From the NCBI GenBank assembly GCA_963709025.1, contig CAVPVE010000022.1, forward strand, positions 3,509 through 67,508: a stretch of DNA of 64,000 bases, given 5' to 3'. Numbering within the stretch: position 1 is the first letter of the stretch; every line of letters begins with the position of its first letter. Of this stretch, positions 47,746 through 64,000 are shown in pieces. Made by a program: the position numbers and the translations under genes. Origin of the DNA: an uncultured Acidobacteriaceae bacterium. GTDB lineage: Bacteria > Acidobacteriota > Terriglobia > Terriglobales > Acidobacteriaceae. The notes under the pieces were generated by a model, which was not told where the DNA came from, ran no database searches, and saw only the letters and a program-made list of their open reading frames with translations.

Positions 47746-49336
47746 ATGATGATGGCGGAGTCGCAGCCGCAAATGGCGGGTGGCACGGTAGAGAGCCGTG
47801 ACGAAAGGCACCTGTTTCCGATGCTAGGCGCGACCACGATTGTACTCCTGATTGCCGCGTGCAAGCTGGTGGGTGCATTTGTACGCGGGACACAGGTATG
47901 GTTACTTGGGTGACGAGCTGTACTTCCTGGCCTGCAGCCGTCATCTCGCTTGGGGCTACGTCGATCAGCCGCCGCTGATCGCGATGATTGCCTGGGCGGT
48001 GCGGAATACGCTGGGTCAGTCGCTGCTCGCGATTCGATTCTTGCCGGCGCTCGCGGGGGCGGTGGAGGTTGTGCTAACCGCGCTGATTGCGCGCGAACTC
48101 GGTGGGAGGCGCTTCGCGCAGGTACTTGCGGCGATTACCACGCTCACTGCGCCCGGCATTCTCGGGTCGGACAGCTTCTTCACGATGAATGCGTTCGAGC
48201 CACTGTTCTGGATGACCTGCGCGTATCTCGTGATTCGCATCATCCAAACCGGAAATGAGAGGCTGTGGATTTGGTTCGGCGTGGTCGCGGGCATCGGTCT
48301 CGAGAACAAGTACTCGATGATGATCTTCGGCGCTGGGATTGTCTTCGGATTACTGCTTACGAACCAACGAAAGCTGCTCGCGAATCCGTGGTTATGGATT
48401 GGCGGGGTGGTCGCGTTTGTGATTTTTGCGCCGAATCTCTGGTGGAATGTTCGGCACCACTTTCCATTTCTCGAATTGCAGGCCAACATTCGACGCAGCG
48501 GGCGGAACGTGCCGTTGGGCTTCTTCAGTTTCTTCGGTCAGGAAATTGGTGCGATGAACCCGTTGACCGCGCCCGTGTGGCTGGCAGGCCTGTGGTTTTT
48601 CTTGTTCGCGGAACAAGGGAAGAGATTTCGCGCGCTGGGCTGGGCCTGGGTGTTCACAGCGGGCGTGATCGTTACGATGAGTCCGCGCGTGTATTACCTC
48701 TTTCCCGCCTTTCCGCTCTTGTTTGCGGCCGGCAGCGTCCTGTGGGAAATGTGTCTCGAGGCGCGGCAGCGAAGGTGGGTGCGAGTGGCCTACCCGGCAC
48801 TGATGATCGCGGTGGGCGCGATTTCTGCGCCGCTGGCCACGCCGGTGCTGCCGGTGGAAACGTACATTCACTACACGCGCGCGTTGCACCTCTCGCCGCC
48901 TCCAAGTGAGACGCACAAGCTGGGCCCGTTGCCGCAGAATTATGCGAGCGAGTTTGGCTGGCCGGAAATGGTCGCGACGGTGGCGCGTGTTTACGACAGT
49001 TTGCCGCCGGGTGTTCGAGCGAAGACGGCGATCTTTGCCCCGAACTATGGCGTAGCCGGCGCGATCGATCTCTTCGGGCCGAAATTTGGATTGCCGTGGG
49101 CGATCAGCGGTCACCAAAGCTATTTCCTGTGGGGACCGCGCGATTACACCGGCGAAAGTATGATCTTCATGGATGATAGCCAAGAGCGCCTCGAGCAACT
49201 GTTTGTAAGCGTGCAGAAGGTCGCGAGCGTGTACCACCCATACTCGATGCCGTACGAGCATTTCGACGTGTTCTATTGCCGAGGGCTCAAGCAGCCGTTG
49301 AAGGAATTGTGGCCGCAGCTGAAGCACTGGGACTGA
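47746..49336 (+). pseudogene. Glycosyltransferase family 39 (ArnT/PMT-like), N-terminus shifted out of frame
   Basis: YGYLGDELYFLACSRHLAWGYVDQPPLIAMIAW... is typical of GT39. The first TM helix (MMMAESQ...LGATTIVLLIAACKLV) is in another frame, with the shift at the gtgggtg run near 47870. Alternatively the protein starts at the TTG at 47852 and lacks TM1. Confidence 0.65.
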
Positions 49337-49716
49337 AGAGCCCTCATCGGGAAGGCATCAAAGCGGCTCTGAGTTTTCGTCCGGCAAAGAGGTATGAGCA
49401 GAAATCTGTGCAAAACGCACGAAATCGCTCCTACAGTGGTCCAGCCCAATCGGAGAAGAGTTCGCTCGCCGTGACTGCTCGCTGAAGCGTGCAGTCACTG
49501 CGTGGGTATTTGCCGATGAAGAAAGGGCTCCGACAACTGACCACTTTCAGCCACACTATCGCCGGGAATTCGCCGTTTAGGATAGATGGAATAGCGAAAC
49601 GAAACCGCACTGATCAAGAAATCAAAGCGCGCGTTTTGGACAAAAAAATCTCTGCTGGAGTTTTGTTATCTGCAACTTACGGACACCTCGGGCTTTGGAG
49701 GCTTAAGACCTGTACC

Positions 49717-49935
49717 GAAGGTTCGAATCCCTCCCGCTCCGCCAGCAAGTCTTAACTGCAGAGAAATTGCGCCGCCTCTTACCCCGAAGTAGGCAAGACA
49801 GCCCAGTTTCGTGATCTTTGGTCGACAAATCGGACTGGAGAGAACGCACGACTCTGCGGTCAAATGGCTTCACCGTCCTGGCTTTCTCCGGGAAGGCGCA
49901 TCGGCAGTCCGGTTTGGATGGTTTCTCGCCGGCGA
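49717..49935 (+). repeat. Repeat copy B: tRNA-like T-arm + acceptor + GCCA (GAAGGTTCGAATCCCTCCCGCTCCGCCA) plus about 190 nt of flank
   Basis: Diverged direct repeat of copy A. Motif copies at 49754-49765 and 49834-49844. No foldable 5' half lies upstream, so this is not a functional tRNA. Confidence 0.7.
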
Positions 49936-50448
49936 ACGCAATGGGATCACAGACCCATCGATGTGGCAAGCGGGTTGACTTTTTCAACATCTCGGAAAGG
50001 CGTTCGGGCAATTCCCTGACCTCATCGCCGCGGCTCCAAATGGCTTCATTAGGCGCACCAAAGCAGGAGGTGAGGATGTTCTAGTCTTTCCTCGAAGCCG
50101 ACGAATTGCCCATTGGTGGACGAAAAGGAACTTCTGATCTTACAGGTCAGAGAAAAGGGGGGTCAAACGGGCTGGGGGGGGTGAGAACAACACGGGAGGG
50201 AATATGCACCCCCTGGACCTCGGGCACTCCCGGTTAGGCTGCCATCCGAGGAGCGGCGACTGGATTTGGTGACCGCCTCGTTGCTCAAAGGAGGTTCGGA
50301 TTTCGTAACAAACCGGCTCGATTTCAAGTTTTTCAATATCGCTTCGTAGTGACTAGCTTTCAAAGACGAAGGGGGCGGGATTCATTAGTGCTCTGGGGCA
50401 GAAGAAGAACGGGGTGCGTTACAAAAACCGAACACAATACCTTTTCTG

Positions 50449-50477
50449 TTGACATTTTGTAGTGGAGCACATAACGT
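50449..50477 (+). promoter_or_regulatory. Possible sigma70-like promoter upstream of the RHS gene
   Basis: TTGACA, 17 nt, TAACGT. The -10 element is weak. Confidence 0.25.
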
Positions 50478-50590
50478 GCTGCGAAAATTTTACGGCAGTC
50501 ATTTTCACCACTCGTCAGGAGACTCTTTACATGGAGCTGCAGGTTGTGTTTTCAACAGCTCTTGGCCTGTTGACGCACTCGGGGCAAGTC

Positions 50591-53500
50591 ATGCGCAAGT
50601 TTCACTTTGCTGTTAGCGTGATCCTGTTTTCTTGCTGCGCAGGCATTGCAACCGCTCAGGTTCAACCCGGCCTACGGAACTTTTCCGCATACGACGCGCA
50701 CGAGGTTGATACGGTCAACCTAATGAATAACAACGTGACCCTGAAGCTTCCGTTCTATTACAAGCCGGGACTTCTTCCGGTCCAGATCGGAATGTTCGGC
50801 AACTACTACGTGAGCGCTCCTAGTTCTACCTGGCAGCCATCTGTCACCAGCCTGCCGCCGACAATCTCGGTGGCTGGGACGCTTAGCGCTGGGAGCACCG
50901 GCTACCTTAGTTGGTCTGGTGGCTCACAAATCTGCCCGAACGGGACAGACCACACTCAGGTTTACTCCCAATGGGCAATTATCACTTCGGACGGCGCGTG
51001 GCACGCCCTCAATCCAACTCTCCAGACCGACAGGATTATGTCGGGTCCGAATACGGGTCAGTCGTGCCTTTCTTCTGGGTTTACCGCGAGTCCACTCGAC
51101 GGCACGAAACTGACTATGACTGCGCCTTCGAACGCATGGAGTTTGGCGCTGCCAACTATCTACACGACGAGCGGCTACATTGTGACCGGGCTTGAGACAG
51201 GCTTAGTAACGCCGTCGATTACTGATTCGAATGGCAATAAGGTAAGCGGCACGACGGCGATCACGGATAGCTTCGGCATGACCGCTGCTACCATCACGAG
51301 CCCAACAGCCGGCCCTGTGTCATGGAATGACGTTAAGGCGGGCACTCCGCAAGTCAGTTTGTCGACGTCGAATCTAACACTGAGGTCAAATTTTGCTTGC
51401 ACCTCCCCGTCGATTGCAGAGTACAACAATACTTCGGCGACGGCACTCCCGACTACCATCAATTATCCGGATGGCACTACGCTCGGGATTAGCTACGAGA
51501 CGACACCAAGCTACTCTCCGAAGGTGACCGGGCGACTGTATCAGATCACGCTACGCGAAGGCGGAACGATCAAATACACCTATGGCGGCGGCCACAATGG
51601 TATCGACTGCACCTACCAAACGGTTCCGACGTTGACGCGTACGTTGGGCAACGGCGACGTGACGACGTATAGCTTGGCCTATAGCCTAATTAGCGGATCG
51701 AACTACAAAGCCGTCAATACGATGATCGATCCCGGCGGAAATGAAACCGATTACACCTTCACTGGCTTCGCATCTGGGGGATATTCGGCTACGTATGGCC
51801 AGGTGCTCACCCAGATCAAAAAGAATCAGGGGAACTGCGCGACATCCTGCACCCTACTTGAGACCGATCTCATCAGCTACAACAGCACGTACACGAGTAC
51901 GCCATCGGCCTCGACTATCGCGAATGCTCAGGTGACTCTCCCGATCACAAAGAAAATCGTCTATCGCCAACTTAGCGGCATGAGCAACTGGTCAGCTGTT
52001 GAAACGCATTATGACACCTACGACGACGTGACCTACACCGCGCAGTACGATTTTGGCGGCTCGTCTCCTGCAAGGGCAACCACTATAACGTATGGCAGCT
52101 GCACTGCGAACTGCACGACGACGAGTCCGACCATATCAAACACCGCAATGGCAGCAAACTTTATATTCAACCGTCCCGGCTCGGTGGTAACGACACAGAA
52201 TGGTTCAACAGTCGCTCAGACAAATTACACCTACGACTCGACAGGGAAGGGAAATCTTACCTCGGCGCAGTATTGGAATGGGTCATCCTTCATTGGGCAG
52301 ACCACTTCCAATGTCATCAACTCTAATGGAACGCCATCGAAGACGTACGATGTCGGAAATCACGAGACTGACTACTACTATGTCTCCACGAGTTATACTG
52401 ACATAAATGGCTGCTCGGCCATGACGCAGACGCCGTTCCCGACGAAAATCACCAACGTGTCTGTTTCGCTTTCCACGCAATTCACTTATGACTGCGTAGG
52501 GGGCGTGAAACTCTCGCAAACTGATGCAAATGGCAACGTCACCAACGACGGATACGTAGAAATCGACGGTACGACCGCAGAGCCGTGGTGGAGACTGAGC
52601 AAGGTGACAGATCCGTATAGCACGGTTTCTGCCTATGGCTATGCGCCAGCTAGCTCAACTTTTTACTACACATCGTTCAACTCTGGTAATTCACTCGATA
52701 ACGCCGGGACTGAGAATGACGCTTACGGTCGTCCTGCGAACTGGCAGAAGGTCCAGGGGCCGTCTAGTTCCACATACGACACCATTTCGACAACCTATGG
52801 CTGGTCTGGTAATTATTTCCAGACGACTACCTCCCAGCCGTGTGCGGCCTCGCTCAACAGTACCTGCACAGCCGCGCACACTTCGCAATTCGACGCGATG
52901 GGCAGGCTTTACACGGAGGTCACCACTAGCAACGAAACGATCACGCACACCTACAACCAAAACGATGACCTAGTGGTATTGACTCCCGCTCCGACGGGAG
53001 AAACAACCGCAGGTAAGCAGATTCAAACCGAGTATGATGGCCTGGGCCGCGTCAGCAAGGTGTGTCACATTGGGTCAACTGCAAGCACAGGCAGTGGGAC
53101 AACTTGCGGTCAACACTATAATAGCTCCGCTACCGGAGCAACAGATGCGTATTCCTACGGGCAAGGTACTGGTTACACAACTGTATCGATCGCTCGTGGT
53201 AGCCAGACGCGCACGTTCACGTTTGACGCTCTTGGTCGCATGACACAGAAGCAAACTCCAGAAGGCGGTACGTGGCACTACTACTACGACTCCTATTCTG
53301 GCAGTTGCGGGCAAAGCGGTAGCCACAATGGTGTGATGACTTGCTCTATCGATCCGAATGGCTACACTGTTTTGTTTTATTATGACGGGCTCGCCAGATT
53401 GACCGACGAGGGCCAGGCAGCAGGAACAAGCAACGCGACTTGCAAGAGATTCCGTTACGACAGCAGCAGCGGAATTCTTGGATCTTTGCCGACAGGCGTT

Positions 53501-55549
53501 AGTTTGTCAAATCAGTACGGCAGGATGGTTGAGGCCGAGACCGACGACTGCACTTACCCGGTGACCTTGGCCCACCAGTTCACGGATGAGTGGTTTGCAT
53601 ACGACAAAGACGGTCGCGCAACCGACGTTTGGCAGTCCAGTCCCCACTCGACGCAGTACTACCATAGCGTAGGCACCTTCTTCGAGAACGGAGCAGTGAA
53701 GACGCTTGCGCTGTCATCGCCAAGTCTATACACGATGACCTATACGATTGACGGCGAGGGTCGCCCGAATAGTGCTGAAGCTGGCACGACTACCATGGTG
53801 TACGGCACGACGTTCAATGCGGCAAGTCAACCGACTGCAGTTAACCTGATTGCCGCCTCCAGCGACAATGACTCGTATAGCTACGATCAGTACACCGGAC
53901 GGATGACTGGCTATACCTTTACGGTTGGCGCAACGCCGAAAAGCCTAACGGGGACATTGACTTGGAACCCCAATGGCACCCTTTCGAAAATTGCGACGAC
54001 TGACGGCTTCAACGCCGGAGGCTCGTTGACGTGTGTGTCGAACTCGACAGGCTCGCTCGGTTACGGCTATGACGATTGGACGCGCTTGAGCACATTCGAC
54101 TGCGGCAGTGGGAATTGGGGACAGAACTTCACCTATGACGTATACGACAATATGTCGAAGAACGTCATTACCGGTCGTACAGGGACTTCGTGGAGCCCTA
54201 CCTATTCATCGTTAACCAACCACTTCACGCCTGGGACGTTTGACTCGGACGGGAACACGACATCGGACGGTAGCGGGTCCAACTATTGGGGCTGGAACGA
54301 ATACTCCAAGATGGCGTGGTACAGCAACAGTGCTATCGCCCCAACCTGCGGGACTAATGGGCAGTGCGCGACTTATGACGCTTTCGGTCGAATGGTTGAG
54401 TACAGCGCCGGGGCTACCTGGAAAGAGACTTGGTACACGCAAGCTGGCACAGTAAATATGAGCGGCACAACCGCAAATTTTGCTTACTGGCCGGCAGCAG
54501 CTGGTAAGGTGATCGTGACGGGGAATCTCGGCACGATTGCGTATGCGCACAATGACTGGCTCGGGAACGCACGAGCCATTTCTACTCACGGACGAACAGT
54601 GCCGCAGGAGCAGGCTTATACTCCTTACGGTGAAATCTTCGCACAATTTGGGACAACGGCAAGCCAACTGGAAGAGTTTGCCGGAATCACTGGAAACTTC
54701 AACAATGGCATTCAGTGGGATACGCCAAATCGAGACTTGGGAATCTTCGGACGCTGGCTGAGCCCTGACCCAGCTGGGCAGGGTTGGAATCAGTACGCTT
54801 ACCCGACAAACCCGAATACTTTCGTTGACCCTTCGGGACTTATAATGAAGGTAGGTTGTGCTGGGGAGCTTCATCCATCAATGGATCCCTTTTGTAGCGG
54901 TGGCGGGCCAGGCGGAGGTGGCGGGGGAGGTGGCGGGGGAGGCTGCATAGTTGATGGTGTTGCCTCAGACTGTGGGGGCCTCCTCGGTAGTAACGGGATA
55001 GTGGAATGTCCGAACGATGTTTGCAACGGGTTCACGAATAGCGGCCAATATTTCCAGTTCGTGGCGGGGGCTGGTGGGGCACAAGGCTATCTTCTTTTTA
55101 GCGACATTCTGAATGGTATTAACGAGGTAAATGGGACCTTCATGTCAAATGCTCAGTTTCAGGCTTACCTGGCTCAGACTTATGCAGCGCAGATACTCGC
55201 GCAATTCAACAGACTCCTGGGTAACCTCCCTGCGGGAGCATCAATTGCCTATGACCCGAACAATCCTGATGTCAACGGAGGTCACGCGAATTTTGCTTAC
55301 AGTTGCCCAGCAGACTCGTGGAGTTCTTGCGGTCCCGGTCGTTATGATGATGGGGTGCACGTTGAATGTGCGTCTGGTGCAACCAATTGTGCTGCCGGGA
55401 GTCCGCTGGTCGCTCATGACGACACCGTGAGTCCGTGGGTCAGCCCGGCTTCGTTTTCCTTCTCAACCTTGTTCACCGCCAATTTTTGGGAGCACGGATT
55501 TGTTGACCTCATCTACGGCCAGATGTGTGGTTGTGTGTTTTCTCAGTAG
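50591..55549 (+). CDS. RHS/YD-repeat polymorphic toxin with Sec signal peptide and an unassigned C-terminal domain
   Basis: I start at ATG 50591 (MRKFHFAVSVILFSCCAGIATAQ). Many YD repeats (FDAMGRLYTE, YDGLGRVSKV, FDALGRMTQK, YDKDGRATDV, YDAFGRMVEY). Core-end motif RWLSPDPAGQGWNQYAYPTNPNTFVDPSGL, followed by about 235 aa of tail. Confidence 0.85.
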   Translation: MRKFHFAVSVILFSCCAGIATAQVQPGLRNFSAYDAHEVDTVNLMNNNVTLKLPFYYKPGLLPVQIGMFGNYYVSAPSSTWQPSVTSLPPTISVAGTLSAGSTGYLSWSGGSQICPNGTDHTQVYSQWAIITSDGAWHALNPTLQTDRIMSGPNTGQSCLSSGFTASPLDGTKLTMTAPSNAWSLALPTIYTTSGYIVTGLETGLVTPSITDSNGNKVSGTTAITDSFGMTAATITSPTAGPVSWNDVKAGTPQVSLSTSNLTLRSNFACTSPSIAEYNNTSATALPTTINYPDGTTLGISYETTPSYSPKVTGRLYQITLREGGTIKYTYGGGHNGIDCTYQTVPTLTRTLGNGDVTTYSLAYSLISGSNYKAVNTMIDPGGNETDYTFTGFASGGYSATYGQVLTQIKKNQGNCATSCTLLETDLISYNSTYTSTPSASTIANAQVTLPITKKIVYRQLSGMSNWSAVETHYDTYDDVTYTAQYDFGGSSPARATTITYGSCTANCTTTSPTISNTAMAANFIFNRPGSVVTTQNGSTVAQTNYTYDSTGKGNLTSAQYWNGSSFIGQTTSNVINSNGTPSKTYDVGNHETDYYYVSTSYTDINGCSAMTQTPFPTKITNVSVSLSTQFTYDCVGGVKLSQTDANGNVTNDGYVEIDGTTAEPWWRLSKVTDPYSTVSAYGYAPASSTFYYTSFNSGNSLDNAGTENDAYGRPANWQKVQGPSSSTYDTISTTYGWSGNYFQTTTSQPCAASLNSTCTAAHTSQFDAMGRLYTEVTTSNETITHTYNQNDDLVVLTPAPTGETTAGKQIQTEYDGLGRVSKVCHIGSTASTGSGTTCGQHYNSSATGATDAYSYGQGTGYTTVSIARGSQTRTFTFDALGRMTQKQTPEGGTWHYYYDSYSGSCGQSGSHNGVMTCSIDPNGYTVLFYYDGLARLTDEGQAAGTSNATCKRFRYDSSSGILGSLPTGVSLSNQYGRMVEAETDDCTYPVTLAHQFTDEWFAYDKDGRATDVWQSSPHSTQYYHSVGTFFENGAVKTLALSSPSLYTMTYTIDGEGRPNSAEAGTTTMVYGTTFNAASQPTAVNLIAASSDNDSYSYDQYTGRMTGYTFTVGATPKSLTGTLTWNPNGTLSKIATTDGFNAGGSLTCVSNSTGSLGYGYDDWTRLSTFDCGSGNWGQNFTYDVYDNMSKNVITGRTGTSWSPTYSSLTNHFTPGTFDSDGNTTSDGSGSNYWGWNEYSKMAWYSNSAIAPTCGTNGQCATYDAFGRMVEYSAGATWKETWYTQAGTVNMSGTTANFAYWPAAAGKVIVTGNLGTIAYAHNDWLGNARAISTHGRTVPQEQAYTPYGEIFAQFGTTASQLEEFAGITGNFNNGIQWDTPNRDLGIFGRWLSPDPAGQGWNQYAYPTNPNTFVDPSGLIMKVGCAGELHPSMDPFCSGGGPGGGGGGGGGGGCIVDGVASDCGGLLGSNGIVECPNDVCNGFTNSGQYFQFVAGAGGAQGYLLFSDILNGINEVNGTFMSNAQFQAYLAQTYAAQILAQFNRLLGNLPAGASIAYDPNNPDVNGGHANFAYSCPADSWSSCGPGRYDDGVHVECASGATNCAAGSPLVAHDDTVSPWVSPASFSFSTLFTANFWEHGFVDLIYGQMCGCVFSQ

Positions 55550-56717
55550 TGCGATCATAGGAACCATTAACAGCCCAGCACAAGACTCGGCCCTCCGGCC
55601 CGAGTGGCGCACGAATTTGCGCCCTGCTCTTCTAAGCGAACCTGTCCGGCTTATTGTTGGCAACCGGCGTGAGCCTGAAGCTCGGTCGCAATCATCCTTA
55701 TGGTTTATGGACAGCAACACACTAGTGGTAACCTTTGTGACACGCGAAAGCCGTGCTAAGCCTGGGGTCTCACGCCGCGACGATGCGGACGAGAGTTTGC
55801 CTTTGCGGCTACAGGTGATTCTGCTTGATGCGACGACAGGACAAATCCTTAAGACTGCCAGTTGGCCTACTGAATCCCGATCTTCCCGCATCGTGGGTGT
55901 GTGTAAAGGAAAGTTTGTGACGCTGCAGGGCAACGAATTGACTCTTTACGCGAGTGATCTGACCGTGTTGAAGAAGGCGAGCTTACCTGTATCAGGCATT
56001 CTCGGTTGGCTTGCACACCCTTCGCCGTCCGGGAAAAGCATCCTGTTCTCGTCGGCCGAGCTAAGGAAGGGTTCGTGGGTCTGGGTGGAGGCCGACACGC
56101 TCAAAGTAGTTCGCGTGTGGCAGGATGACCCAAGTGGATATTTAAGCATCTCTGATCAAGACATGGTCACATCGACGTGTTGGCGTGGATACGAATGTAA
56201 GAAGATCGTCGTAACGCCTAACGAGGCGTCAGCGTGTTTTGCCGGACCGAAGTGTGTTCCGAGCGTCGAAATCAAATCGCTCTCCTCAGACTGGAGGACC
56301 TTAACAGTGGGGGAGCCACAGCTTCGCCCGCAGTTTGTTAGCGACGACCTGATCTTTCTTCCGGGAAGCAGTGGAAGGATTATCCGCACCGACGGAACGG
56401 TCCTATTCGAGCAGCAAAGAGGGCGTGAGTCGTGGGGATGTTGGGGCGCTGGAGTTGTGCCCTCCTCTAAGGGCAATCGATTCGTGATCCCGAGCTGCCC
56501 CGTGAAAGGCGCCGTTGCCAGACTCGACATAAGTGGCCATGTGGTGTTAAAGCAAGTTTTTGTTTTTGAGATTGCTTCCACAATTCGTGCTCAGGTGTTA
56601 CAGGTGAAAGGTCCTGAAATCAAAGATCAGATGGAGTTCGCATTGTCGCCCGATGGTTCTAAGCTTGCCATCTTGAACGGCGAATTCGTTGAGACAATGA
56701 TCCTACCAACCCAGTGA
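55500..56717 (+). CDS. Secreted beta-rich (propeller-like) protein; candidate immunity or partner of the RHS toxin
   Basis: The TTG start overlaps the RHS 3' end by 50 nt. Signal-peptide-like MLTSSTARCVVVCFLSSAIIGTINSPA. Repetitive beta-strand pattern. No recognisable family. Confidence 0.55.
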   Translation: MLTSSTARCVVVCFLSSAIIGTINSPAQDSALRPEWRTNLRPALLSEPVRLIVGNRREPEARSQSSLWFMDSNTLVVTFVTRESRAKPGVSRRDDADESLPLRLQVILLDATTGQILKTASWPTESRSSRIVGVCKGKFVTLQGNELTLYASDLTVLKKASLPVSGILGWLAHPSPSGKSILFSSAELRKGSWVWVEADTLKVVRVWQDDPSGYLSISDQDMVTSTCWRGYECKKIVVTPNEASACFAGPKCVPSVEIKSLSSDWRTLTVGEPQLRPQFVSDDLIFLPGSSGRIIRTDGTVLFEQQRGRESWGCWGAGVVPSSKGNRFVIPSCPVKGAVARLDISGHVVLKQVFVFEIASTIRAQVLQVKGPEIKDQMEFALSPDGSKLAILNGEFVETMILPTQ

Positions 56718-56833
56718 AGATAATCAGTGCACGGACTGCTTGGCACTGACTTGCCCGTGCTTTCTTACACAGTGGAGTGCGCTTCGTTTTCTCGGGATGT
56801 AAGTCGGGTCCCGGAGCTTTTCGGCCCCGGTGA

Positions 56834-58357
56834 TCAATCCCCGACGCCAACCAATTCCGCCAATGCCCTCCAGTGCCTCGGGTGCGGTCTGTATCCTTTT
56901 CGAATCTTGCTCGCATACCAGTTGGAAACTCCAAGTGCCGACCGAATGGCTGACATCGAAACGCTAGACAGCAAAGGCTGGATCTTTCCCGCGAACAATT
57001 CGGGTGTTAGCCAAGCTGGCTGATCGGATTCCTTCCAAGAATGCTGCGCTAGTGCGTTCTTCCGAGCTTTGGTCGCTCGCTTAACCTGAGCTTCAGGGCC
57101 ATTTGCCGTTCGACGTCCGATTCGGGCTGCACTCAACATATTCTTGGTCGATGTCGGCACACCGCATTGAACACAAGTCTTGCTCTCGCTCCGAATTCTC
57201 TTTCCACATCCCGGGCAGAGATTTTCGATCGGCTGTGCTACGCGCACGCTCATTTCAGATACGACACCTTTAGCTGCGCGTCTGTGTGTTTGGGTCAAGT
57301 GCGTCGGTGCATGAGTGTACTGCGTTCGCCTCTGGGTTGTTGACCAGAATTGTTTAGCAACCCATTCGGCTACCGGAGCTACAGCGCGTCTCCATATTGA
57401 AGCTGTTTCAGACAAACGGACAGCGAAGGGAGCCATTAACCGGCAGTTGCCGTCCCGCTGTTCGAAAAACCACTCCCGCCTTAGCGGTTGCCGCGTGATC
57501 CAATCCAGCAAGTACGAGTCCACGCTAGACCGGACCGGCTCCATGAGATCACAGGCCAGGCTGTCGCGAGCCGGGGTATCAACGTGCATGACACCCAAAC
57601 CAGGATCAAGTCCCAGCGCAGCAGCCGCCAATCGAGCTTCAGATTCTAGGACGCAATACAAATAGTTCAAGATTGCGTTCGGCGGATTCACGGCGGATCG
57701 AGGCGAGCCCGTCAACGGTGAGACCCGCGTTCCGAAGCTGCGCCAATGTTCAGGTACGCGGGGCAGGTCCTTCTTGGGAAAATTGATCGGCAGCGTGCTC
57801 CATGCAGACCAGAAGGCACGGGCCGCCTGGGATTCGATAAGGCGAATTGTTGAGATGCAATCAGCTTGAGGCAGCTCGGCTTTATAACGCGCGATCGTAT
57901 CGGCGGTCAAAGAATCTAGAAGCCTGGTACGCGCTACTTGCTCCTGCCCAGAAAGCTTCTTACCGATCAGGTCCCGAGCGATCCGAAGAGCTGCTCCATT
58001 CGAGACTGCCAGAGATTGCGCACGTCGCAGTTTGGCGTCGGAAGATCGAACAGGGCCCGTTGTTGCGAGCACTGAGCCGTCTCGATCGAGCATGACAAAG
58101 CTCGCGTCCTGGTCCGCCAGCCATCGGAGTGCCGCGAGCGAAACCATGCCGTCCGAGCCGATAACGACAAGCCGTCGAAGGCCATGTCCCACCCTTGGGA
58201 AGCGTGCTTGACGACGATCTTTTGCAATTCCATCTTCAACGACCAAGTGACCTCGATCGACGCGCACGCTAGTCCCGTATCCAAAAAGCGTGACTACCCC
58301 TTGTCGAGGCTGAATGTCTGTTTGAGAAAACGAAGTTGAGGCCATTGGATCTCCCAT
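56834..58357 (-). CDS. cas1: Cas1-family integrase homolog (solo Cas1 / casposase-like) with zinc-ribbon + HTH C-terminal extension
   Basis: N-terminal beta domain: VVTLFGYGTSVRVDRGHLVVEDG...VVIGSDGMVSLAALRWLADQDASFVMLDRDG. Catalytic-domain motifs: IESQAARAFWSAW, NAILNYLYCVLESEA and LGLDPGLGVMHVDTPARDSLACDLMEPVRSSVD. C-terminal CPGC-x10-CVQC and ...ALGVSNWYASKIRKGYRPHPRHW. Confidence 0.85.
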   Translation of the reverse strand: MGDPMASTSFSQTDIQPRQGVVTLFGYGTSVRVDRGHLVVEDGIAKDRRQARFPRVGHGLRRLVVIGSDGMVSLAALRWLADQDASFVMLDRDGSVLATTGPVRSSDAKLRRAQSLAVSNGAALRIARDLIGKKLSGQEQVARTRLLDSLTADTIARYKAELPQADCISTIRLIESQAARAFWSAWSTLPINFPKKDLPRVPEHWRSFGTRVSPLTGSPRSAVNPPNAILNYLYCVLESEARLAAAALGLDPGLGVMHVDTPARDSLACDLMEPVRSSVDSYLLDWITRQPLRREWFFEQRDGNCRLMAPFAVRLSETASIWRRAVAPVAEWVAKQFWSTTQRRTQYTHAPTHLTQTHRRAAKGVVSEMSVRVAQPIENLCPGCGKRIRSESKTCVQCGVPTSTKNMLSAARIGRRTANGPEAQVKRATKARKNALAQHSWKESDQPAWLTPELFAGKIQPLLSSVSMSAIRSALGVSNWYASKIRKGYRPHPRHWRALAELVGVGD

Positions 58358-58372
58358 TCTGAGGAAACGCGA

Positions 58373-59374
58373 TCACTTTACGATTCTTTCTTCCTCTGCG
58401 AATGCACGGTCTACAGCAGTTGGGTGGGACTTGCGCTTCCAGTACTCTCTGGAAATCGCAGCCGCTAGGTCAACCCGTCTCGTTCCTTGCTCCAACACGG
58501 TGGCTATCGACCTTCGAAGGTAATAGCGATTCTCGCGCAGATCAGCGAGAGCAAATTTGTTCCCTGTAGGGCGTTTGGCTTCGAGGAATTTATCCGCATC
58601 TCTCATCAGATCCGATCTCCGTGCATTGGCTCTGACAATTCGCTCAAGAATGCGAAAAATCCCGAAGCTTAGGCCTTCTGGCTCTTCCTTCCATTTTCGA
58701 CATCTGTCGGCAGAACGTCTCCAACCTATGAATGGAAGACCCGCAAGAGCGTTCGCAACGTCGAGGGGTGTCAGTCTGTAGCGCTTACTACGGCAGAAAT
58801 CGAACAGTTCGGTTCGGGCGAAGTAAGCCTCGCCATCTCTTATCAATATTTCCAACTCTTTTTCTTGTTCCCTCAAAGCAATGCATTCCTCTCCAGCATG
58901 AGCTAGCTTTCGTGCTCTCTCACACATCGCGTCCCGGATGACGTCCTGTTCTGCAGGGGATAGGTGTTGAGCGGGAATGACCATGAAGCGCTCTAGTGAG
59001 TCGCGGCACTGATCAATCCACCCTATCGCACTCAGATAACGATTATGGAGTTCTCCAAGTTGCTTGCGCTGGCGATACAGCGATCTCGATGTAGCTGGCC
59101 GTTCGCCACTCCAGAGTAAGGCTCTTACAACATGCTCTTCCTGCTCTATTCGTTTTTCCCAAGGCTTCATGACATCGCGCAAATTCCCCATCTTTCGGAC
59201 AGTTTGAAACCGGCAGCCGACCTCGTCCCAAGTCGTCTCTAAAAGAAAACGAAGGTGCTGGCGCATGTTCCACAACCGATCTTTGTCAATTTGTGACGGA
59301 TAGCCTCGTACGGGCTTGCGCTCGTCGAGCGCCGACAAGATTTTGTCCGCCACATTAAAGCCATCCAAATCCAT
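58373..59374 (-). CDS. Hypothetical alpha-helical protein, co-transcribed upstream of cas1
   Basis: 333-aa ORF that ends 15 nt before the cas1 start. No motif I recognise. Confidence 0.6.
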   Translation of the reverse strand: MDLDGFNVADKILSALDERKPVRGYPSQIDKDRLWNMRQHLRFLLETTWDEVGCRFQTVRKMGNLRDVMKPWEKRIEQEEHVVRALLWSGERPATSRSLYRQRKQLGELHNRYLSAIGWIDQCRDSLERFMVIPAQHLSPAEQDVIRDAMCERARKLAHAGEECIALREQEKELEILIRDGEAYFARTELFDFCRSKRYRLTPLDVANALAGLPFIGWRRSADRCRKWKEEPEGLSFGIFRILERIVRANARRSDLMRDADKFLEAKRPTGNKFALADLRENRYYLRRSIATVLEQGTRRVDLAAAISREYWKRKSHPTAVDRAFAEEERIVK

Positions 59375-59509
59375 TGGATCGCCAAGTTAATGATGCTAAA
59401 AACATCGTTATTGCCGTATTACTCGAAAACGTCCTCAGTGAACCTAAGTAAACACATGATATCACGCATGTTAGCCTCCTTTCAGCAGTAGGTAGAAGGG
59501 GCATAGAGA
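59375..59509. promoter_or_regulatory. Divergent promoter region between the (unknown-cas1) and (HTH-HNH-polB) operons
   Basis: 135-nt AT-richer spacer between divergent starts. It contains the imperfect palindrome aacacatgatatcacgcatgtt. Confidence 0.4.
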
Positions 59510-59971
59510 ATGCGAAACGGCAAGAAACAACGTGGAACAAGCAAGAAAACGTACAATCGCGCGCTCCATGTGCTTGCGCGGATGCGCCGGACGGGTTCGA
59601 GCCTAACCGTCGCGGCACGAGAGGAACATATTGACCCTCGCACTGTCCGGAGATACCTGTCGACGGAATTACGGGAGCATGGAAAAGCGACGCGAGGGGA
59701 TCGCAGAAAACGCGACATGCTGGTACCAACGACCGTTGGAAACTCTCCAGTCACGGTGCGCGGTTCGAAGCAAGCGTCGGAGCTGGGTAAATACATGTCG
59801 GCGGTCGGCAGGTACCTCCGAACGGGTGATGTTGAAGGCTTAGGGAAGTTCGAAGGAAAGTCGATTGGTGGACACGCGCTGATCACCGACCCCGATCTTC
59901 TGAGCTCCCTGGCTCAAGCGGGGGCGTTAACCCTGGATGAAATCTACGCCCTCCCGGAGGCGTCGTCATGA
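59510..59971 (+). CDS. Basic HTH-domain protein
   Basis: 153 aa. N-terminus KTYNRALHVLARMRRTGSSLTVAAREEHIDPRTVRRYL. ATGA overlap with the next gene. Confidence 0.6.
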   Translation: MRNGKKQRGTSKKTYNRALHVLARMRRTGSSLTVAAREEHIDPRTVRRYLSTELREHGKATRGDRRKRDMLVPTTVGNSPVTVRGSKQASELGKYMSAVGRYLRTGDVEGLGKFEGKSIGGHALITDPDLLSSLAQAGALTLDEIYALPEASS

Positions 59972-60303
59972 TGAACGAAAAGCCGATCGAGACTGCGCGT
60001 AGAAGAGCTCGGCGCTTGGAGCAAGGAAGGTGCTTGCTTTGTGGGAGAACAGGTTTCCTTATCGAGCAAGACCATACCGCTGGTCAGAACCATGATGAGT
60101 TTCTGACGGCTCCACTCTGCTTGGCATGCCACGCAATGGTTACGGAACTTCGCCGTCGAGCAGACGCCGACATGCGTGCTCAGCGGAATCTTAGGCTGAC
60201 CGTCAAGTGTGCGCTCAACGCTACAGCGGTGTTTCTTCGAATGCTCGCCGATGCAATGCATCGATGGGCCCAACTTCTTTCTGAAGAGGAGAGCTTGCCA
60301 TGA
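59968..60303 (+). CDS. HNH endonuclease-like protein
   Basis: CLLCG...EQDHTAGQNHDEFLTAPLCLACH (CxxC...DH...N...CxxCH). ATGA overlaps with both neighbours. Confidence 0.65.
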   Translation: MMNEKPIETARRRARRLEQGRCLLCGRTGFLIEQDHTAGQNHDEFLTAPLCLACHAMVTELRRRADADMRAQRNLRLTVKCALNATAVFLRMLADAMHRWAQLLSEEESLP

Positions 60304-63185
60304 ATCACGGAATTTTTCTGCGCTGTCACACATGCATTCTGGACGAGGAAACCCTGGAAAAGGGTGGAAAGAGGAAACAGGACCCACTTCCGAAGTATGT
60401 TCTCGTTCTCGACACCGAGACCACAACCGACGCACTCCAGACCTTAAATTTCGGCGTCTATCAGTTTTGTGAATTGACAACCGAAGGCAAGTATCGGTGT
60501 CTGGAGGAAGGAATCTTCTATGGCGACGAACTAGGATCCGAGCAGCAAGCCGTACTTCGCGCTTACGTCACCCAGCAAAACGAGAACCGGGCCAAGGACG
60601 AATTGAAACTCAGGCTTTACGAACGCCGCGTATTTGTCGAGAAAGTGATGTACACGGCGGTTCAGGCTGGAGCAGCAATTGTCGCTTTCAATCTGCCTTT
60701 CGATCTGTCGCGGCTCGCTGTCGAATACCGGGTAGCGCGCGGAGCTGGCGGAGGCGGCTGGAGCTTTGTCGTCTTTCGCTACAAGAATAAGTCGAAGGAT
60801 GAATGGGTTCCGAACACATTCCGTCCTCGCGTCCAACTTCGTCCGAAGGACTCGAAAGCTGCGTTTATTCGGTTGGCGGGAGGCGACATGAATCAACCGT
60901 ATCGTGTCGGTCGCTTCTTAGACCTTAAGACCCTGGTCTGGGCCCTCCGAAACAAGAGTCTCAGCCTTGACAGTGCATGTCGCGAATTCAAAGTACCGGG
61001 CAAACTCGACAACTACGTTCCAAGTGGAAGGATCACACCGGAAGAAGTCAAGTATTGCAGGCAAGACGTTCGTGCGACCGTCGGATTGTTGAATGCACTA
61101 ATCGCGGAATTCAAGAACTATCCTCTGGGCGATCTTCCACCGGAAAGAGCCTACTCAGCCGCATCCATCGCCAAAGCCTTCCTGAAGACAATGGGAGTTA
61201 TTTCACCCCAGCGAAAATTCCAGCTCGACAACCAAACAAACGGCATCTGCATGCAGGCTTACTACGGCGGACGCGCGGAAATTCGCATCCGTCATACTCC
61301 TGTCCCGGTTGTGTATACGGATTTCACAAGCCAATACCCGACGGTTAACACTCTTTTGGGACTATGGCGAGTGCTAACGGCAGATCGGGTGCAAGTCGTA
61401 GACGCTACCGATGAGATTCGATCCCTTTTGCAATCGCTCACGATCGATAATCTGCTTGATCAGAGAACTTGGCCTAAGCTGGCATTCTTCGCATTGATTC
61501 AGCCTGAAGCCGACATTTTTCCGGTTCGAACGGTCTACGGCGATGGTCAGACAGTCGATCAAACAAACATAGGACTGAATCCGCTCACGTCAAATGCACC
61601 GGTTTGGTCTGCGGGTCCTGACGTGGTCGGATCAGCGCTATTAACGGGAAGACCGCCGAAGATTTTGCGAGCCATTCGGATCGAACCGATGGGCGTTCAG
61701 AAGGGCATGAACTCCGTTACGTTGGGGACAGGATCGATTGATCCGCATGCGGATGATTTCTTTCGCAAAGTCATTGAAGAGCGAAAGGGAAAACAGAAAA
61801 GCGACCCTCTCTATTATTTTCTCAAAATCCTGGCGAACGCCGGGTGCTATGGAATCTATGCCGAAGTCAACAAACTCCAAGTTGGAAAGAACAAGGCAAA
61901 GAAAATCGGAATCTTTTCGGGAGAGCTGAGCGGGACTGAACGAACCTGCGTCATGGAAGTGCCGGGCCCCTGGTATTTCCCACCTGTGGCCTCTCTGATT
62001 ACAGCTGGCGGAAGATTGCTTTTGGCCATGTTGGAACGGATGGTTACAGACGCAGGCGGAACCTACCTCATGTGCGACACCGACTCCATGGCTATCGTCT
62101 CCTCTGAACGAGGCGGACTCCTCCGATGCAGTGGTGGCTCGCATCGCATATCGGATGGAAGTGATGCCATTAAAGCTCTGTCATGGAAGCAGGTTCGGGA
62201 AATAGTCGATCGATTCGAGGCTTTGAATCCGTATGACAAGAGAGTGATTCCGGGCTCAATCCTGAACATTGTCCAGGAGCTCAATTTCGATTCGGAAGGT
62301 GGCCAACGACAACTGTACGGCTACGGTATTTCCGCAAAACGCTACGCTCTGTACACCCAGGAGAAATCTGGAATTCACCTTATCAAAGTGAGTGAGCATG
62401 GCCTCGGGCTTTACTATCGGCCAAAAGAAGGTCGCGATCCAGAATGCGAGGTGTCAACTTGGATCAAGGAAGGTTGGCAATGGATGTTGAACCGAGCTCT
62501 CGGCTTCCGCAGTTACAAACCGAAGTGGTTTCGCCTTCCGGTTATGAGACGGATTGCCATCAGCACGCCAAATGTGATGGCAGCACTGCGTCGATTACGA
62601 CGCGATCAAGCCAAACCCTACAATTTTGCATTGTCTCCAGTCTTGGTGAACCTAACCAACATCCCACTGACTCTGTTGGCTCCTTTCGAAAAGGACTCGT
62701 CTCAATGGATGAAATTGCCTCATGTGAACATTCATGATGGCACAACTCACTGTTTGGAGAAGCCAACCGTACCTATCGTGGTGCAAACCTTTGAGATGGT
62801 ATTCAAGCAGTATCACGGCCATCGCGAAGCCAAGAGCTCCGCGCCGGATGGCAGTCGTTGCAAACCCGATACGGATGGTCTGCTCAAGCGATATCCGGTG
62901 ACGGCAACGAGTTTTCATCTGATCGGCAAAGAAACTGAGCGAGGCTGGGAGCAGAGCGATGATGTCAGTACCCTCGTGCCTTCGCTAGTGCGATACGGCT
63001 CTGACACTGGTATTGCCGACGAGCAACTCAGAAAACGGCTGCTTGAGATACCACTAGCCTTCCTGGAATTCGAAACCGGATTGAGTCGGCATACGATCGT
63101 GCGAGCACGAAGAGGCCAACCAGTACACGCGCGGTCACTGCAGCTTCTTAAGAATGTTGTCCGCCGAGTGCCAGTTCGAAAATGA
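60300..63185 (+). CDS. polB: Family B DNA polymerase with 3'-5' exonuclease domain
   Basis: ExoI LVLDTETTTD. ExoII IVAFNLPFDLSRL. ExoIII YCRQDVRAT. Motif A VYTDFTSQYPT. Motif B KILANAGCYGIYAE. Motif C YLMCDTDSMAIV. KxY-like ISAKRYALY. HTH-like C-terminal tail. Confidence 0.85.
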   Translation: MNHGIFLRCHTCILDEETLEKGGKRKQDPLPKYVLVLDTETTTDALQTLNFGVYQFCELTTEGKYRCLEEGIFYGDELGSEQQAVLRAYVTQQNENRAKDELKLRLYERRVFVEKVMYTAVQAGAAIVAFNLPFDLSRLAVEYRVARGAGGGGWSFVVFRYKNKSKDEWVPNTFRPRVQLRPKDSKAAFIRLAGGDMNQPYRVGRFLDLKTLVWALRNKSLSLDSACREFKVPGKLDNYVPSGRITPEEVKYCRQDVRATVGLLNALIAEFKNYPLGDLPPERAYSAASIAKAFLKTMGVISPQRKFQLDNQTNGICMQAYYGGRAEIRIRHTPVPVVYTDFTSQYPTVNTLLGLWRVLTADRVQVVDATDEIRSLLQSLTIDNLLDQRTWPKLAFFALIQPEADIFPVRTVYGDGQTVDQTNIGLNPLTSNAPVWSAGPDVVGSALLTGRPPKILRAIRIEPMGVQKGMNSVTLGTGSIDPHADDFFRKVIEERKGKQKSDPLYYFLKILANAGCYGIYAEVNKLQVGKNKAKKIGIFSGELSGTERTCVMEVPGPWYFPPVASLITAGGRLLLAMLERMVTDAGGTYLMCDTDSMAIVSSERGGLLRCSGGSHRISDGSDAIKALSWKQVREIVDRFEALNPYDKRVIPGSILNIVQELNFDSEGGQRQLYGYGISAKRYALYTQEKSGIHLIKVSEHGLGLYYRPKEGRDPECEVSTWIKEGWQWMLNRALGFRSYKPKWFRLPVMRRIAISTPNVMAALRRLRRDQAKPYNFALSPVLVNLTNIPLTLLAPFEKDSSQWMKLPHVNIHDGTTHCLEKPTVPIVVQTFEMVFKQYHGHREAKSSAPDGSRCKPDTDGLLKRYPVTATSFHLIGKETERGWEQSDDVSTLVPSLVRYGSDTGIADEQLRKRLLEIPLAFLEFETGLSRHTIVRARRGQPVHARSLQLLKNVVRRVPVRK

Positions 63186-63199
63186 TTGCGCGCAATTCG

Positions 63200-63847
63200 T
63201 CAGACTCTAGTTCGTCTGCTTGGAAGCGGACGATCTTGGGTCATCCCGACGCACTCATGAAAGCAACGTGAGTCAACTTTCAAAGACTCTGCAATCTTTG
63301 CGATATCCTCCCGGTGCTTTGAACTTTGCTCCCAACGGGTGTCTAAGATAGCAGTAGCAGGAATCGCCTCTCGCTGGCGGAGGAGAGCCAAGCGTTGAAG
63401 GTCCCTTCGCACGCCGCGCCGACACGAATCCTGAAATATGGGATGGAGGTCATTCCAGTTGGCCTTTAGGGCATATATTCGGCGCTTTACTCTCTGAGTC
63501 TTCTGTCGCACCGACCGCTCAGTGAGCCGAGTACGCTTCTTCCAGTCTCCTCGGCCCCTCAGCCAAATACCGTACGCTGCGACATGCGATGCAAGTTCAG
63601 AGGTGAGCCACTTCTTCCTTCCAACGTCGCTCGTACCCAAGGCGATTAAATCCAGACCGCTCCGTCTAATGTTCCTCGTCGGCCCAACAATCAAAATATC
63701 CAGGTCGGAGTCAGGCCTGGCTAGTCCCGCAGCACATGAACCAAACACAACGATTTCGCGAGCACAACCCAGGGTTGCAAAAGAGATCCCCAACTCTGCC
63801 AGTCGGGATCTCAATAATTGCATTAGATCTGATCTTCTAGTTCTCAT
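63200..63847 (-). CDS. Nucleotidyltransferase-domain protein (MNT / Pol-beta superfamily) with an uncharacterised C-terminal half
   Basis: VVFGSCAAGLARPDSDLDILIVGP (GSxxxG...SDLDIL). Confidence 0.7.
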   Translation of the reverse strand: MRTRRSDLMQLLRSRLAELGISFATLGCAREIVVFGSCAAGLARPDSDLDILIVGPTRNIRRSGLDLIALGTSDVGRKKWLTSELASHVAAYGIWLRGRGDWKKRTRLTERSVRQKTQRVKRRIYALKANWNDLHPIFQDSCRRGVRRDLQRLALLRQREAIPATAILDTRWEQSSKHREDIAKIAESLKVDSRCFHECVGMTQDRPLPSRRTRV

Positions 63848-63977
63848 GTGGTTCTATGATTTTTTCGAGTAAAACCAACACTTGCCCTAACGACTTGAGC
63901 CCCTCTCTCATTTCGTCCTTTGTGGGCCCTTCGCCGTATGCTTGTAATATTTCGTCAAACTGTTCTGCCAAATTCAT
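63837..63977 (-). CDS. Small ORF overlapping the NTase start by 11 nt (may extend beyond the window)
   Basis: MNLAEQFDEILQAYGEGPTKDEMREGLKSLGQVLVLLEKIIEPHEN*. The frame stays open upstream to position 64000. Confidence 0.35.
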   Translation of the reverse strand: MNLAEQFDEILQAYGEGPTKDEMREGLKSLGQVLVLLEKIIEPHEN

Positions 63978-64000
63978 GATTTCCCCGTCGTCGTCTAGCC

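Follow-up and report, generated by a model that had tools for sequence, protein, structure and literature searches.

Casposases are integrases of the Cas1 family that insert their own self-synthesizing transposon, the casposon, and they are the presumed ancestors of the integrase that inserts CRISPR spacers. [quoted passage not shown] The A. boonei casposase, also of family 2, requires a leader motif and the border between this leader and the target site duplication (TSD) (PMC6614799). Family 3, the bacterial clade of Krupovic et al. 2014 (AceAut-C1, NitAL212-C1, StrAlb-C1 and HenMar-C1), targets intergenic sites (PMC6614799), and the Cas1 of AceAut-C1 has a C-terminal zinc-binding domain and HTH (PMC4046053). 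This architecture is thus already on record for bacterial casposons and is not new. Here we analyzed a window of 64,000 nucleotides (nt), positions 3509-67508 of contig C22 from the 6.7-Mb, 48-contig genome (G000) of an uncultured Acidobacteriaceae bacterium. An open reading frame (ORF) at 56834-58357 encodes a casposase, the Cas1-family integrase of a casposon of about 14.7 kb in a soil acidobacterium, whose C-terminal extension probably serves as a DNA-reading arm.

The C22 element resembles AceAut-C1 in its bacterial host, in the zinc-binding domain and HTH at the C-terminus of Cas1 (PMC4046053), in encoding a family B DNA polymerase (PolB) alongside a small HTH protein and an HNH-like protein (both only weakly matched in C22), and in its intergenic integration. 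It differs in belonging to a large clade of Acidobacteriota (Terriglobia) and in carrying RHS-like cargo; the two arms are compared by description only. Host, intergenic targeting and gene set make membership of family 3 likely. With family 2 (M. mazei 6opm and A. boonei), the C22 casposase shares the core fold, for which 6opm is the best match, an HTH of about 60 residues at the C-terminus, and the presence of a similar HTH on PolB (PMC4046053). Family 2 has a TSD of 14-15 bp and depends on a leader motif upstream of it (PMC6614799, PMC6977970); the counterparts here are the 14-bp TSDs of related elements and a leader-like motif seen in the sequence. Unlike the C22 enzyme, family 2 casposases have neither a zinc ribbon nor a helical hairpin between core and HTH, and they occur in archaeal hosts and target mostly transfer RNA (tRNA) genes. 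The literature searched contained no mention of this Acidobacteriota clade, of its size, of its conserved attachment site or of its confident structural model.

Results

A Cas1 core followed by a C-terminal extension

The following alignments were used: A1, with 72 homologues at 34-87% identity; A2, the extension only, with 36 sequences; A3, the PolB side of an hhalign comparison with A2; and A4, a profile of the tail. The gene and the parts of its product, in amino acids (aa), are as follows.

56834..58357, minus strand: casposase gene, 507 aa plus stop codon, Cas1 core and C-terminal extension (ORF list, Pfam and NCBIfam Cas1, PDB matches 4n06 and 6opm)
57344..58357, minus strand: Cas1 core, residues 1-338, N-terminal beta domain and catalytic helical domain
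57227..57343, minus strand: basic linker, residues 339-377, with a nearly invariant PTxLTQ motif (T352, L354, T355; alignments A1 and A2)
57158..57226, minus strand: predicted Cys4 zinc ribbon, residues 378-400 (C381, C384, C395, C398; conserved cysteines, sub-threshold Pfam matches, profile matches, model confidence)
57023..57157, minus strand: predicted basic antiparallel helical hairpin, residues 401-445 (helices 396-418 and 421-440; AlphaFold2 models, composition)
56837..57022, minus strand: predicted XRE/Cro-C1-like four-helix HTH tail, residues 446-507, with a PHPRHW signature (AlphaFold2, Foldseek, profiles)

Pfam Cas_Cas1 (PF01867) spans residues 24-307 (E 3.6e-41), and NCBIfam TIGR00287 scored 105 bits against a cut-off of 71.7. 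Among PDB sequences, the best-scoring were 4n06, from the A. fulgidus Cas1 (E 6e-20), and 6opm, from the M. mazei casposase (E 5.5e-18). In sequence, the protein is about as distant from the former, a CRISPR Cas1, as from the latter, and both alignments end at about residue 310, leaving about 170 residues uncovered. E175, H258, D270 and E273 are invariant in A1 and match the motifs of 4n06 and 6opm. The first-pass annotation, made from the letters of the window, had placed the end of the Cas1 fold near ..LSETASIWRRAVAPVAEWV.. and had claimed an extension of roughly 170 aa. The final helix of the Cas1 fold in the AlphaFold2 model, residues 319-338, falls on that very stretch and leaves 169 aa (residues 339-507) as the extension. 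A basic linker is present at residues 339-377, and the CPGC-x10-CVQC motif of the annotation corresponds to C381-C384 and C395-C398. The protein ends in ..MSAIRSALGVSNWYASKIRKGYRPHPRHWRALAELV, with a G-x2-PH-x2-W core (consensus PHPRHW), and the HTH-like character claimed for this tail agrees with the predicted four-helix domain and its resemblance to XRE-type HTHs.

The same annotation had noted that casposases have C-terminal HTH domains and that CRISPR Cas1 proteins usually lack them. The surroundings mark the protein as a casposase and not a CRISPR Cas1, because PolB and terminal inverted repeats (TIRs) are present, 14-bp TSDs flank related copies, and neither a CRISPR array (in 40000-64000) nor cas2 or any other cas gene (among the neighbors) was found. 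With intact Cas1, PolB and TIRs outside a CRISPR-Cas locus, the element is a casposon. Foldseek with the full model also ranked the 6opm casposase first (E 4e-17), above CRISPR Cas1 structures. CRISPR Cas1 proteins (A. fulgidus 4n06 and type I-C 8d3l) share the fold and the catalytic E/H/D(E) residues with the C22 protein but lack its C-terminal arm.

The extension is an integral and selected part of the casposase

A search with residues 320-507 alone returned 1099 proteins, and PF01867 was present on 120 of the 120 matches listed, most of them about 500 aa long. An exhaustive search of representatives clustered at 50% identity gave 1191 proteins at E<=1e-30, and many representatives with just 36-50% identity have alignments that span roughly residues 15-503. 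In A1 (n=72), C381, C384, C398 and P491 are invariant, and C395, W441, P461, G488, H492, H495 and W496 are at least 90% conserved, which chance would not produce. The HTH is the most conserved section of the extension, and the helical hairpin is the least conserved and most indel-prone. Against the copy on contig C43 of the same genome (81% aa identity), the ratio of nonsynonymous to synonymous substitution rates (dN/dS) was 0.05 in the core, against 0.18 in residues 340-507 and 0.135 within the HTH, with dS close to 1. The extension is under purifying selection.

We give next to no weight to the view that the extension is an annotation artefact of two mis-fused genes, or that the protein is a CRISPR adaptation Cas1. 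Many source annotations do label homologues "CRISPR-associated endonuclease Cas1", and no other support for this view was found. The mis-fused ORF that the first-pass annotation had named as a possible objection is refuted by a frame that runs continuously through all full-length homologues (more than 1000), by the low dN/dS, and by the internal ATG, GTG and TTG codons between residues 300 and 470, none of which is preceded by a Shine-Dalgarno-like motif, that is, a ribosome-binding site. A CRISPR adaptation Cas1 is ruled out by the PolB, TIR and TSD context, with no array or cas2 nearby.

Predicted fold of the extension

AlphaFold2 was run on A1 for the full protein, with a mean predicted local distance difference test (pLDDT) of 90.7 and a predicted TM-score of 0.77, and on A2 for the extension alone, with a pLDDT of 88.7 and recovery of identical elements. 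The other objection named in the first-pass annotation, an extension lacking any fold in structure prediction, fails as well: zinc ribbon, hairpin and HTH were modelled at high confidence. The models place short helices within the basic linker carrying PTxLTQ, a zinc-ribbon-like pair of knuckles at residues 378-400 (pLDDT about 85-95), two long antiparallel helices at residues 396-418 and 421-440 with 10 K/R against 3 D/E, and a compact four-helix domain at residues 452-502 (pLDDT 93-98). The two CxxC knuckles are conserved and, in the models, folded, and this segment is a predicted zinc ribbon. Pfam zinc-ribbon families match the casposase below threshold only, and the profile of the whole extension retrieved nothing but zinc ribbons of a generic kind, those of ribosomal L32 and L37e and of the reverse gyrase finger.

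Foldseek with the extension alone gave no significant match. Its list consisted mostly of XRE/Cro-C1 HTHs (CapH-N, SinR, HipB, Aca proteins and lambda repressor), with target-normalized TM-scores of about 0.5-0.65 across 50-65 columns. Run against the PDB, the A4 profile found XRE-type HTHs only (E 0.014-0.03); the alignments cover the recognition helix and continue into the G-R-x-P after it. The casposase itself does not match HTH_3 at the curated Pfam threshold, HTH_31 is weakly matched by 2 of the 36 relatives, and the module of zinc ribbon and HTH has no Pfam model of its own, its Pfam matches staying sub-threshold. By sequence and model, the tail behaves like the XRE/HTH_3 superfamily and is probably a diverged member of it. 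It shares with XRE/Cro-C1 proteins the four-helix layout and a ..S..y.s.I..G.r.P.. pattern after the recognition helix, whereas its Pfam matches are sub-threshold, it has its own PHPRHW signature, and it is fused to an integrase or polymerase rather than forming a free repressor. No sequence or fold link between the tail and the family 2 casposase HTH was detected by the A2 and A4 profiles, which do not list 6opm when run against all PDB sequences, or by Foldseek. No fold comparison with the 6opm HTH is available, because that domain is disordered in the crystal (PMC6977970).

The HTH occurs on PolB and on a TniQ-like protein

PolB ends in an HTH of some 55 residues (about 63018-63182), whose homology to the casposase tail emerged when A2 and A3 were compared by hhalign (probability 94.2%, E 1.1e-7). 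The PolB tails of the related elements G022 and G027a retain an ILP.L...PH pattern. The same HTH tail, at 52% identity (..IGVSIAYASEIRTGRRRPHPRHWQALGELVGV), closes a 761-aa protein of genome G034 (L025:3800-6085, minus strand; G034:C10), where it passes Pfam HTH_3 with 25.2 bits against 23. The tail is therefore a shuffled module that extends beyond casposases. The G034 protein has a weak TniQ-like zinc-finger region and adjoins a tyrosine recombinase, and its neighborhood is not that of a classical Tn7. No leader motif of the kind described below lies within 8 kb of its gene, which gives no support either way.

Stand-alone zinc-ribbon/HTH genes gave many short matches, most of them on contigs of a few kb or less and possibly truncated. 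One 213-aa ORF of zinc ribbon and HTH only (P0322, L136:8001-8642) lies on a 984-kb contig with no Cas1 alongside; its neighbors are a Dam-type methyltransferase gene and a Shedu-like (SduA_C) gene. This ORF is a remnant or a free-standing form of the module, and it looks like a remnant.

A leader-like host motif precedes the element

The casposon measures 14,747 bp, from window position 50178 to the equivalent of 64924, that is, 924 nt beyond the window. Its boundaries and target are as follows.

50136-50168, plus strand: leader-like host motif GATCTTACAGG-N14-GGTCAAAC, 33 bp, overlapping the presumed TSD
50162-50175, plus strand: presumed 14-bp target duplication of the C22 copy (GTCAAACGGGCTGG)
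50178..50212, plus strand: left TIR (GGGGTGAGAACAACACGGGAGGGAATATGCACCCC)
equivalent of 64890-64924: right TIR, flush with the contig end, 924 nt beyond the window

The TIRs of the C22 copy are 35 nt long and complementary at 32 of 35 positions. The C22 copy was compared with eight more elements with TIRs, two in the same genome (on C43 and C25) and six from five sister genomes. In each of the nine, Cas1 is linked to PolB. TSDs flank the TIRs in seven of the eight further elements, and every TSD begins GTCAA(A/T/C)C; they measure 14 bp in C43, C25, G026, G027a and G004, match at 13 of 14 positions in G022 and measure 16 bp in G031. G027b (the G027:C7 element), with inverted repeats of about 1.5 kb, was left out of the TSD count. 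The C43 element has perfect 37-nt TIRs (GGGGTGAGAACAGGACGGGAGGGAATATGCACCCCTG) with a flanking direct repeat, and the G026 element has perfect 38-nt TIRs.

Every element has a conserved motif at one of its two sides, immediately upstream of the TSD. The target consensus reads TGATCTTACAGG-N7-GAGAAAAG-NN-GG and then GTCAAAC, with which the TSD starts. The exact pattern GATCTTACAGG-N10-16-GGTCAAAC was found in 24 of 37 genomes of the genus, usually as one copy, and its reversed control did not occur in any of the 37. The motif is also present in genomes without a Cas1 match; other sites are C43:128355-128387 in the same genome and loci L028-L055. A TIR-like sequence of the GGG(G/A) type mostly follows 6-8 nt after the motif. 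What follows the motif in G003 and G033 is instead the 3' end of a host gene in convergent orientation, and these look like empty sites. Because it is found in genomes without Cas1 and at the two apparently empty sites, at about one copy per genome, the motif is host DNA, and the possibility that it forms part of the element was rejected. The target motif is intergenic. Integration into a tRNA or known non-coding RNA gene was ruled out, since ARAGORN found no tRNA in the window and Rfam nothing credible at 48500-50400.

In many Cas1-less genomes, a lone TIR-like sequence adjoins the leader motif, which may be a footprint or a non-autonomous derivative.

The recognition helix does not follow TIR type among nine elements

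Three unrelated TIR types (GGGGTGAGAAC.., GGGATAGTGTG.. and GGGATAGGAGG..) pair with a near-identical recognition helix (GVS[RN]WYA[SG][KR][IL]R.GYRPHPRHW), and a single TIR type (GGGATAGGAGGTAGG..) pairs with two different recognition helices. Three elements whose Cas1 proteins are 76-82% identical retain nearly identical TIRs. All TIRs have GGG(G/A) termini and an internal A/T-rich ..ATGC..-like block. Most of them start GGG(G/A)T and the C25 TIR starts GGGAG, with the internal block reading ..A(A/T)(A/G)TGC... Within each 35-37-nt TIR, the outer end is complementary to the inner end (GGGGTG...CACCCC), so a single-stranded TIR end could fold back on itself.

Gene content and cargo of the C22 casposon

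The right quarter of the window consists entirely of this one casposon (50178-64000). Its other genes are as follows.

60300..63185, plus strand: family B DNA polymerase, 961 aa (Pfam PF03175, 33.6 bits against a cut-off of 25.8)
59968..60303, plus strand: small Cys/His protein, 111 aa, weakly HNH-like, overlapping the polB start (NCBIfam HlpB E 0.0033, sub-threshold)
59510..59971, plus strand: basic HTH protein, 153 aa (weak similarity to HTH_23, TnsD and the IS21 N-terminus)
58373..59374, minus strand: 333-aa protein, function unassigned, directly upstream of cas1 (40% identity in the C43 copy)
50462..56717, plus strand: cargo within the element limits, a 1695-aa RHS/YD-like protein and an overlapping 405-aa partner

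The only family matched by PolB is DNA_pol_B_2, the organellar and viral, protein-primed type, and PolB has no match among PDB sequences. The genes for the 153-aa HTH, 111-aa HNH-like and 961-aa PolB proteins lie upstream of cas1 in divergent orientation; the 111-aa and 153-aa ORFs sit directly upstream of polB, a position fitting family 3, and their HNH and HTH matches are weak. The 1695-aa RHS/YD-like protein (50462-55549) matches Rhs_assc_core below the cut-off (E 3.3e-6). On the minus strand, from window 63200-64000 on to 64855, lies a nucleotidyltransferase cargo gene (PF01909, MntA-like N-terminus), overlapped by a 122-aa helical ORF that is possibly its partner, together with an ORF of about 220 aa with hydrophobic segments.

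Related copies

Two further Cas1-PolB pairs occur in the same genome, on C43 (81% identity) and C25 (44%). Gapped DNA similarity between the C22 and C43 copies extends from window position 50126 or so to the contig end and includes the 1695-aa RHS-like gene. The RHS region is 84.6% identical in nucleotides, above cas1 (78%) and polB (74.5%). The divergent third casposon (C25, about 367400-383900), with the 44% identical Cas1, has TIRs of about 250 nt. A degraded casposon at C36:163529-170293 still has the leader motif and a TIR of the GGGATAGGAG type, along with remnants of cas1 that contain frameshifts. Three repeat copies, at about C15:36822-36956, C18:108000-108140 and C42:140295-140435, are up to about 440 bp long with about 250 bp common to all three; they carry just the last 45 or so casposase codons, without a start codon.

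Cas1 is patchy in the genus, being present in about one third of the genomes searched, and several copies are degraded. Related loci were found with a single protein as query, and 80 of 135 confirmed loci were kept. Almost all of the 80 come from metagenome-assembled genomes of Acidobacteriota/Terriglobia, with one record labelled Micrarchaeota; the hosts include Acidobacteriaceae, Ca. Sulfotelmatobacter, Acidoferrales, Bryobacterales and Vicinamibacterales.

Discussion

We consider it probable that the extension is a DNA-reading arm needed for integration. The Cas1 core would catalyze the transesterifications that join the 3' ends of the element to target DNA 14 bp apart, and the arm of linker, zinc ribbon, hairpin and HTH would most likely anchor the enzyme on specific DNA beside the reaction site. 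In the reading that we prefer, this DNA would be the leader-like motif (GATCTTACAGG...GAGAAAAG..GG) together with the GTCAAAC start of the duplicated target. Integration would then be site-specific, as it is for family 2 casposases and CRISPR integrases through recognition of a leader. We infer the DNA binding of the arm, the identity of the bound DNA and the requirement for integration. Target reading is rated above the reading of element ends because, among the nine elements, one recognition helix goes with three TIR types and the target motif is shared. Through the homologous HTH on PolB, integrase and polymerase would be recruited to the same DNA; as a sequence relationship, the shared HTH suggests such joint recruitment, equally possibly to the element ends.

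Several points weigh against this explanation. The Foldseek and profile matches of the tail are weak (E 0.01 to about 1). For the M. mazei HTH on its own, no DNA binding could be detected, and base-specific target contacts in that enzyme come from R191/R192 of the catalytic domain (PMC6977970); the core could therefore read GTCAAAC without the tail. The argument from helices and TIRs is based on nine elements, and recombination between elements could blur it. In addition, the right-hand TSD of the C22 copy lies outside the assembly, the contig ending at the TIR.

The arm may instead bind the element's own ends, the TIRs or subterminal DNA, in the manner of classical transposase end-binding, with the PolB HTH docking the polymerase there for replication. 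We regard this as possible though not likely. A meeting of both proteins at the element ends would best account for the homologous HTH on PolB, all TIRs have GGG(G/A) termini and the ..ATGC..-like block in common, and the three elements with similar Cas1 keep nearly identical TIRs. However, near-identical recognition helices occur with three unrelated TIR types and one TIR type with two helices, and the A. boonei and M. mazei casposases integrate varied, even single-stranded ends with little sequence demand (PMC6614799, PMC6977970).

Two further readings are minor rivals, and we judge both improbable. The HTH could act mainly as a transcriptional autoregulator on the divergent promoter at 59375-59509, between ORF333/cas1 and the HTH-HNH-polB genes, thereby limiting transposition; the closest fold and sequence relatives of the tail are indeed XRE/Cro-C1 repressors. 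Autoregulation would, however, make the same tail on PolB difficult to account for, the element already has a separate small HTH protein beside 59375-59509, and deletion of the family 2 HTH abolishes catalysis-dependent integration in vitro (PMC6977970). Alternatively, zinc ribbon and hairpin could form mainly a Cas2-like protein-protein scaffold that holds two Cas1 dimers at the 14-bp spacing, with non-specific DNA contacts. The long antiparallel hairpin (396-440) is typical of oligomerization elements, and casposases work as tetramers without Cas2 (PMC6977970), but no part of the arm is less conserved or more prone to indels than the hairpin, which is also strongly basic.

More speculatively, and with doubt prevailing over belief, zinc ribbon, hairpin and HTH may together act as a portable "address" module for a single conserved host site of 33 bp, a site that casposons with unrelated TIRs would all use by way of the module. 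Its HTH would have been copied to PolB and to the TniQ-like protein, sending different DNA machineries to like sites. If this were true, the C22 casposase and its relatives would be the first system in which the long-unresolved role of the casposase HTH is directly testable, with a domain modelled at high confidence, a leader motif that is defined and empty sites that occur naturally.

As the C22 element shows, the cargo of bacterial casposons can be large; in this case it comprises an RHS-like protein, its partner gene and a nucleotidyltransferase gene. Its Acidobacteriota clade provides more than 1000 natural variants of a larger arm, of zinc ribbon, hairpin and HTH, predicted at high confidence. 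The TIRs are defined, the duplications measure 14 bp, the leader-like target is conserved and sister genomes contain sites that look empty, which makes target or end recognition by a casposase testable by simple biochemistry.

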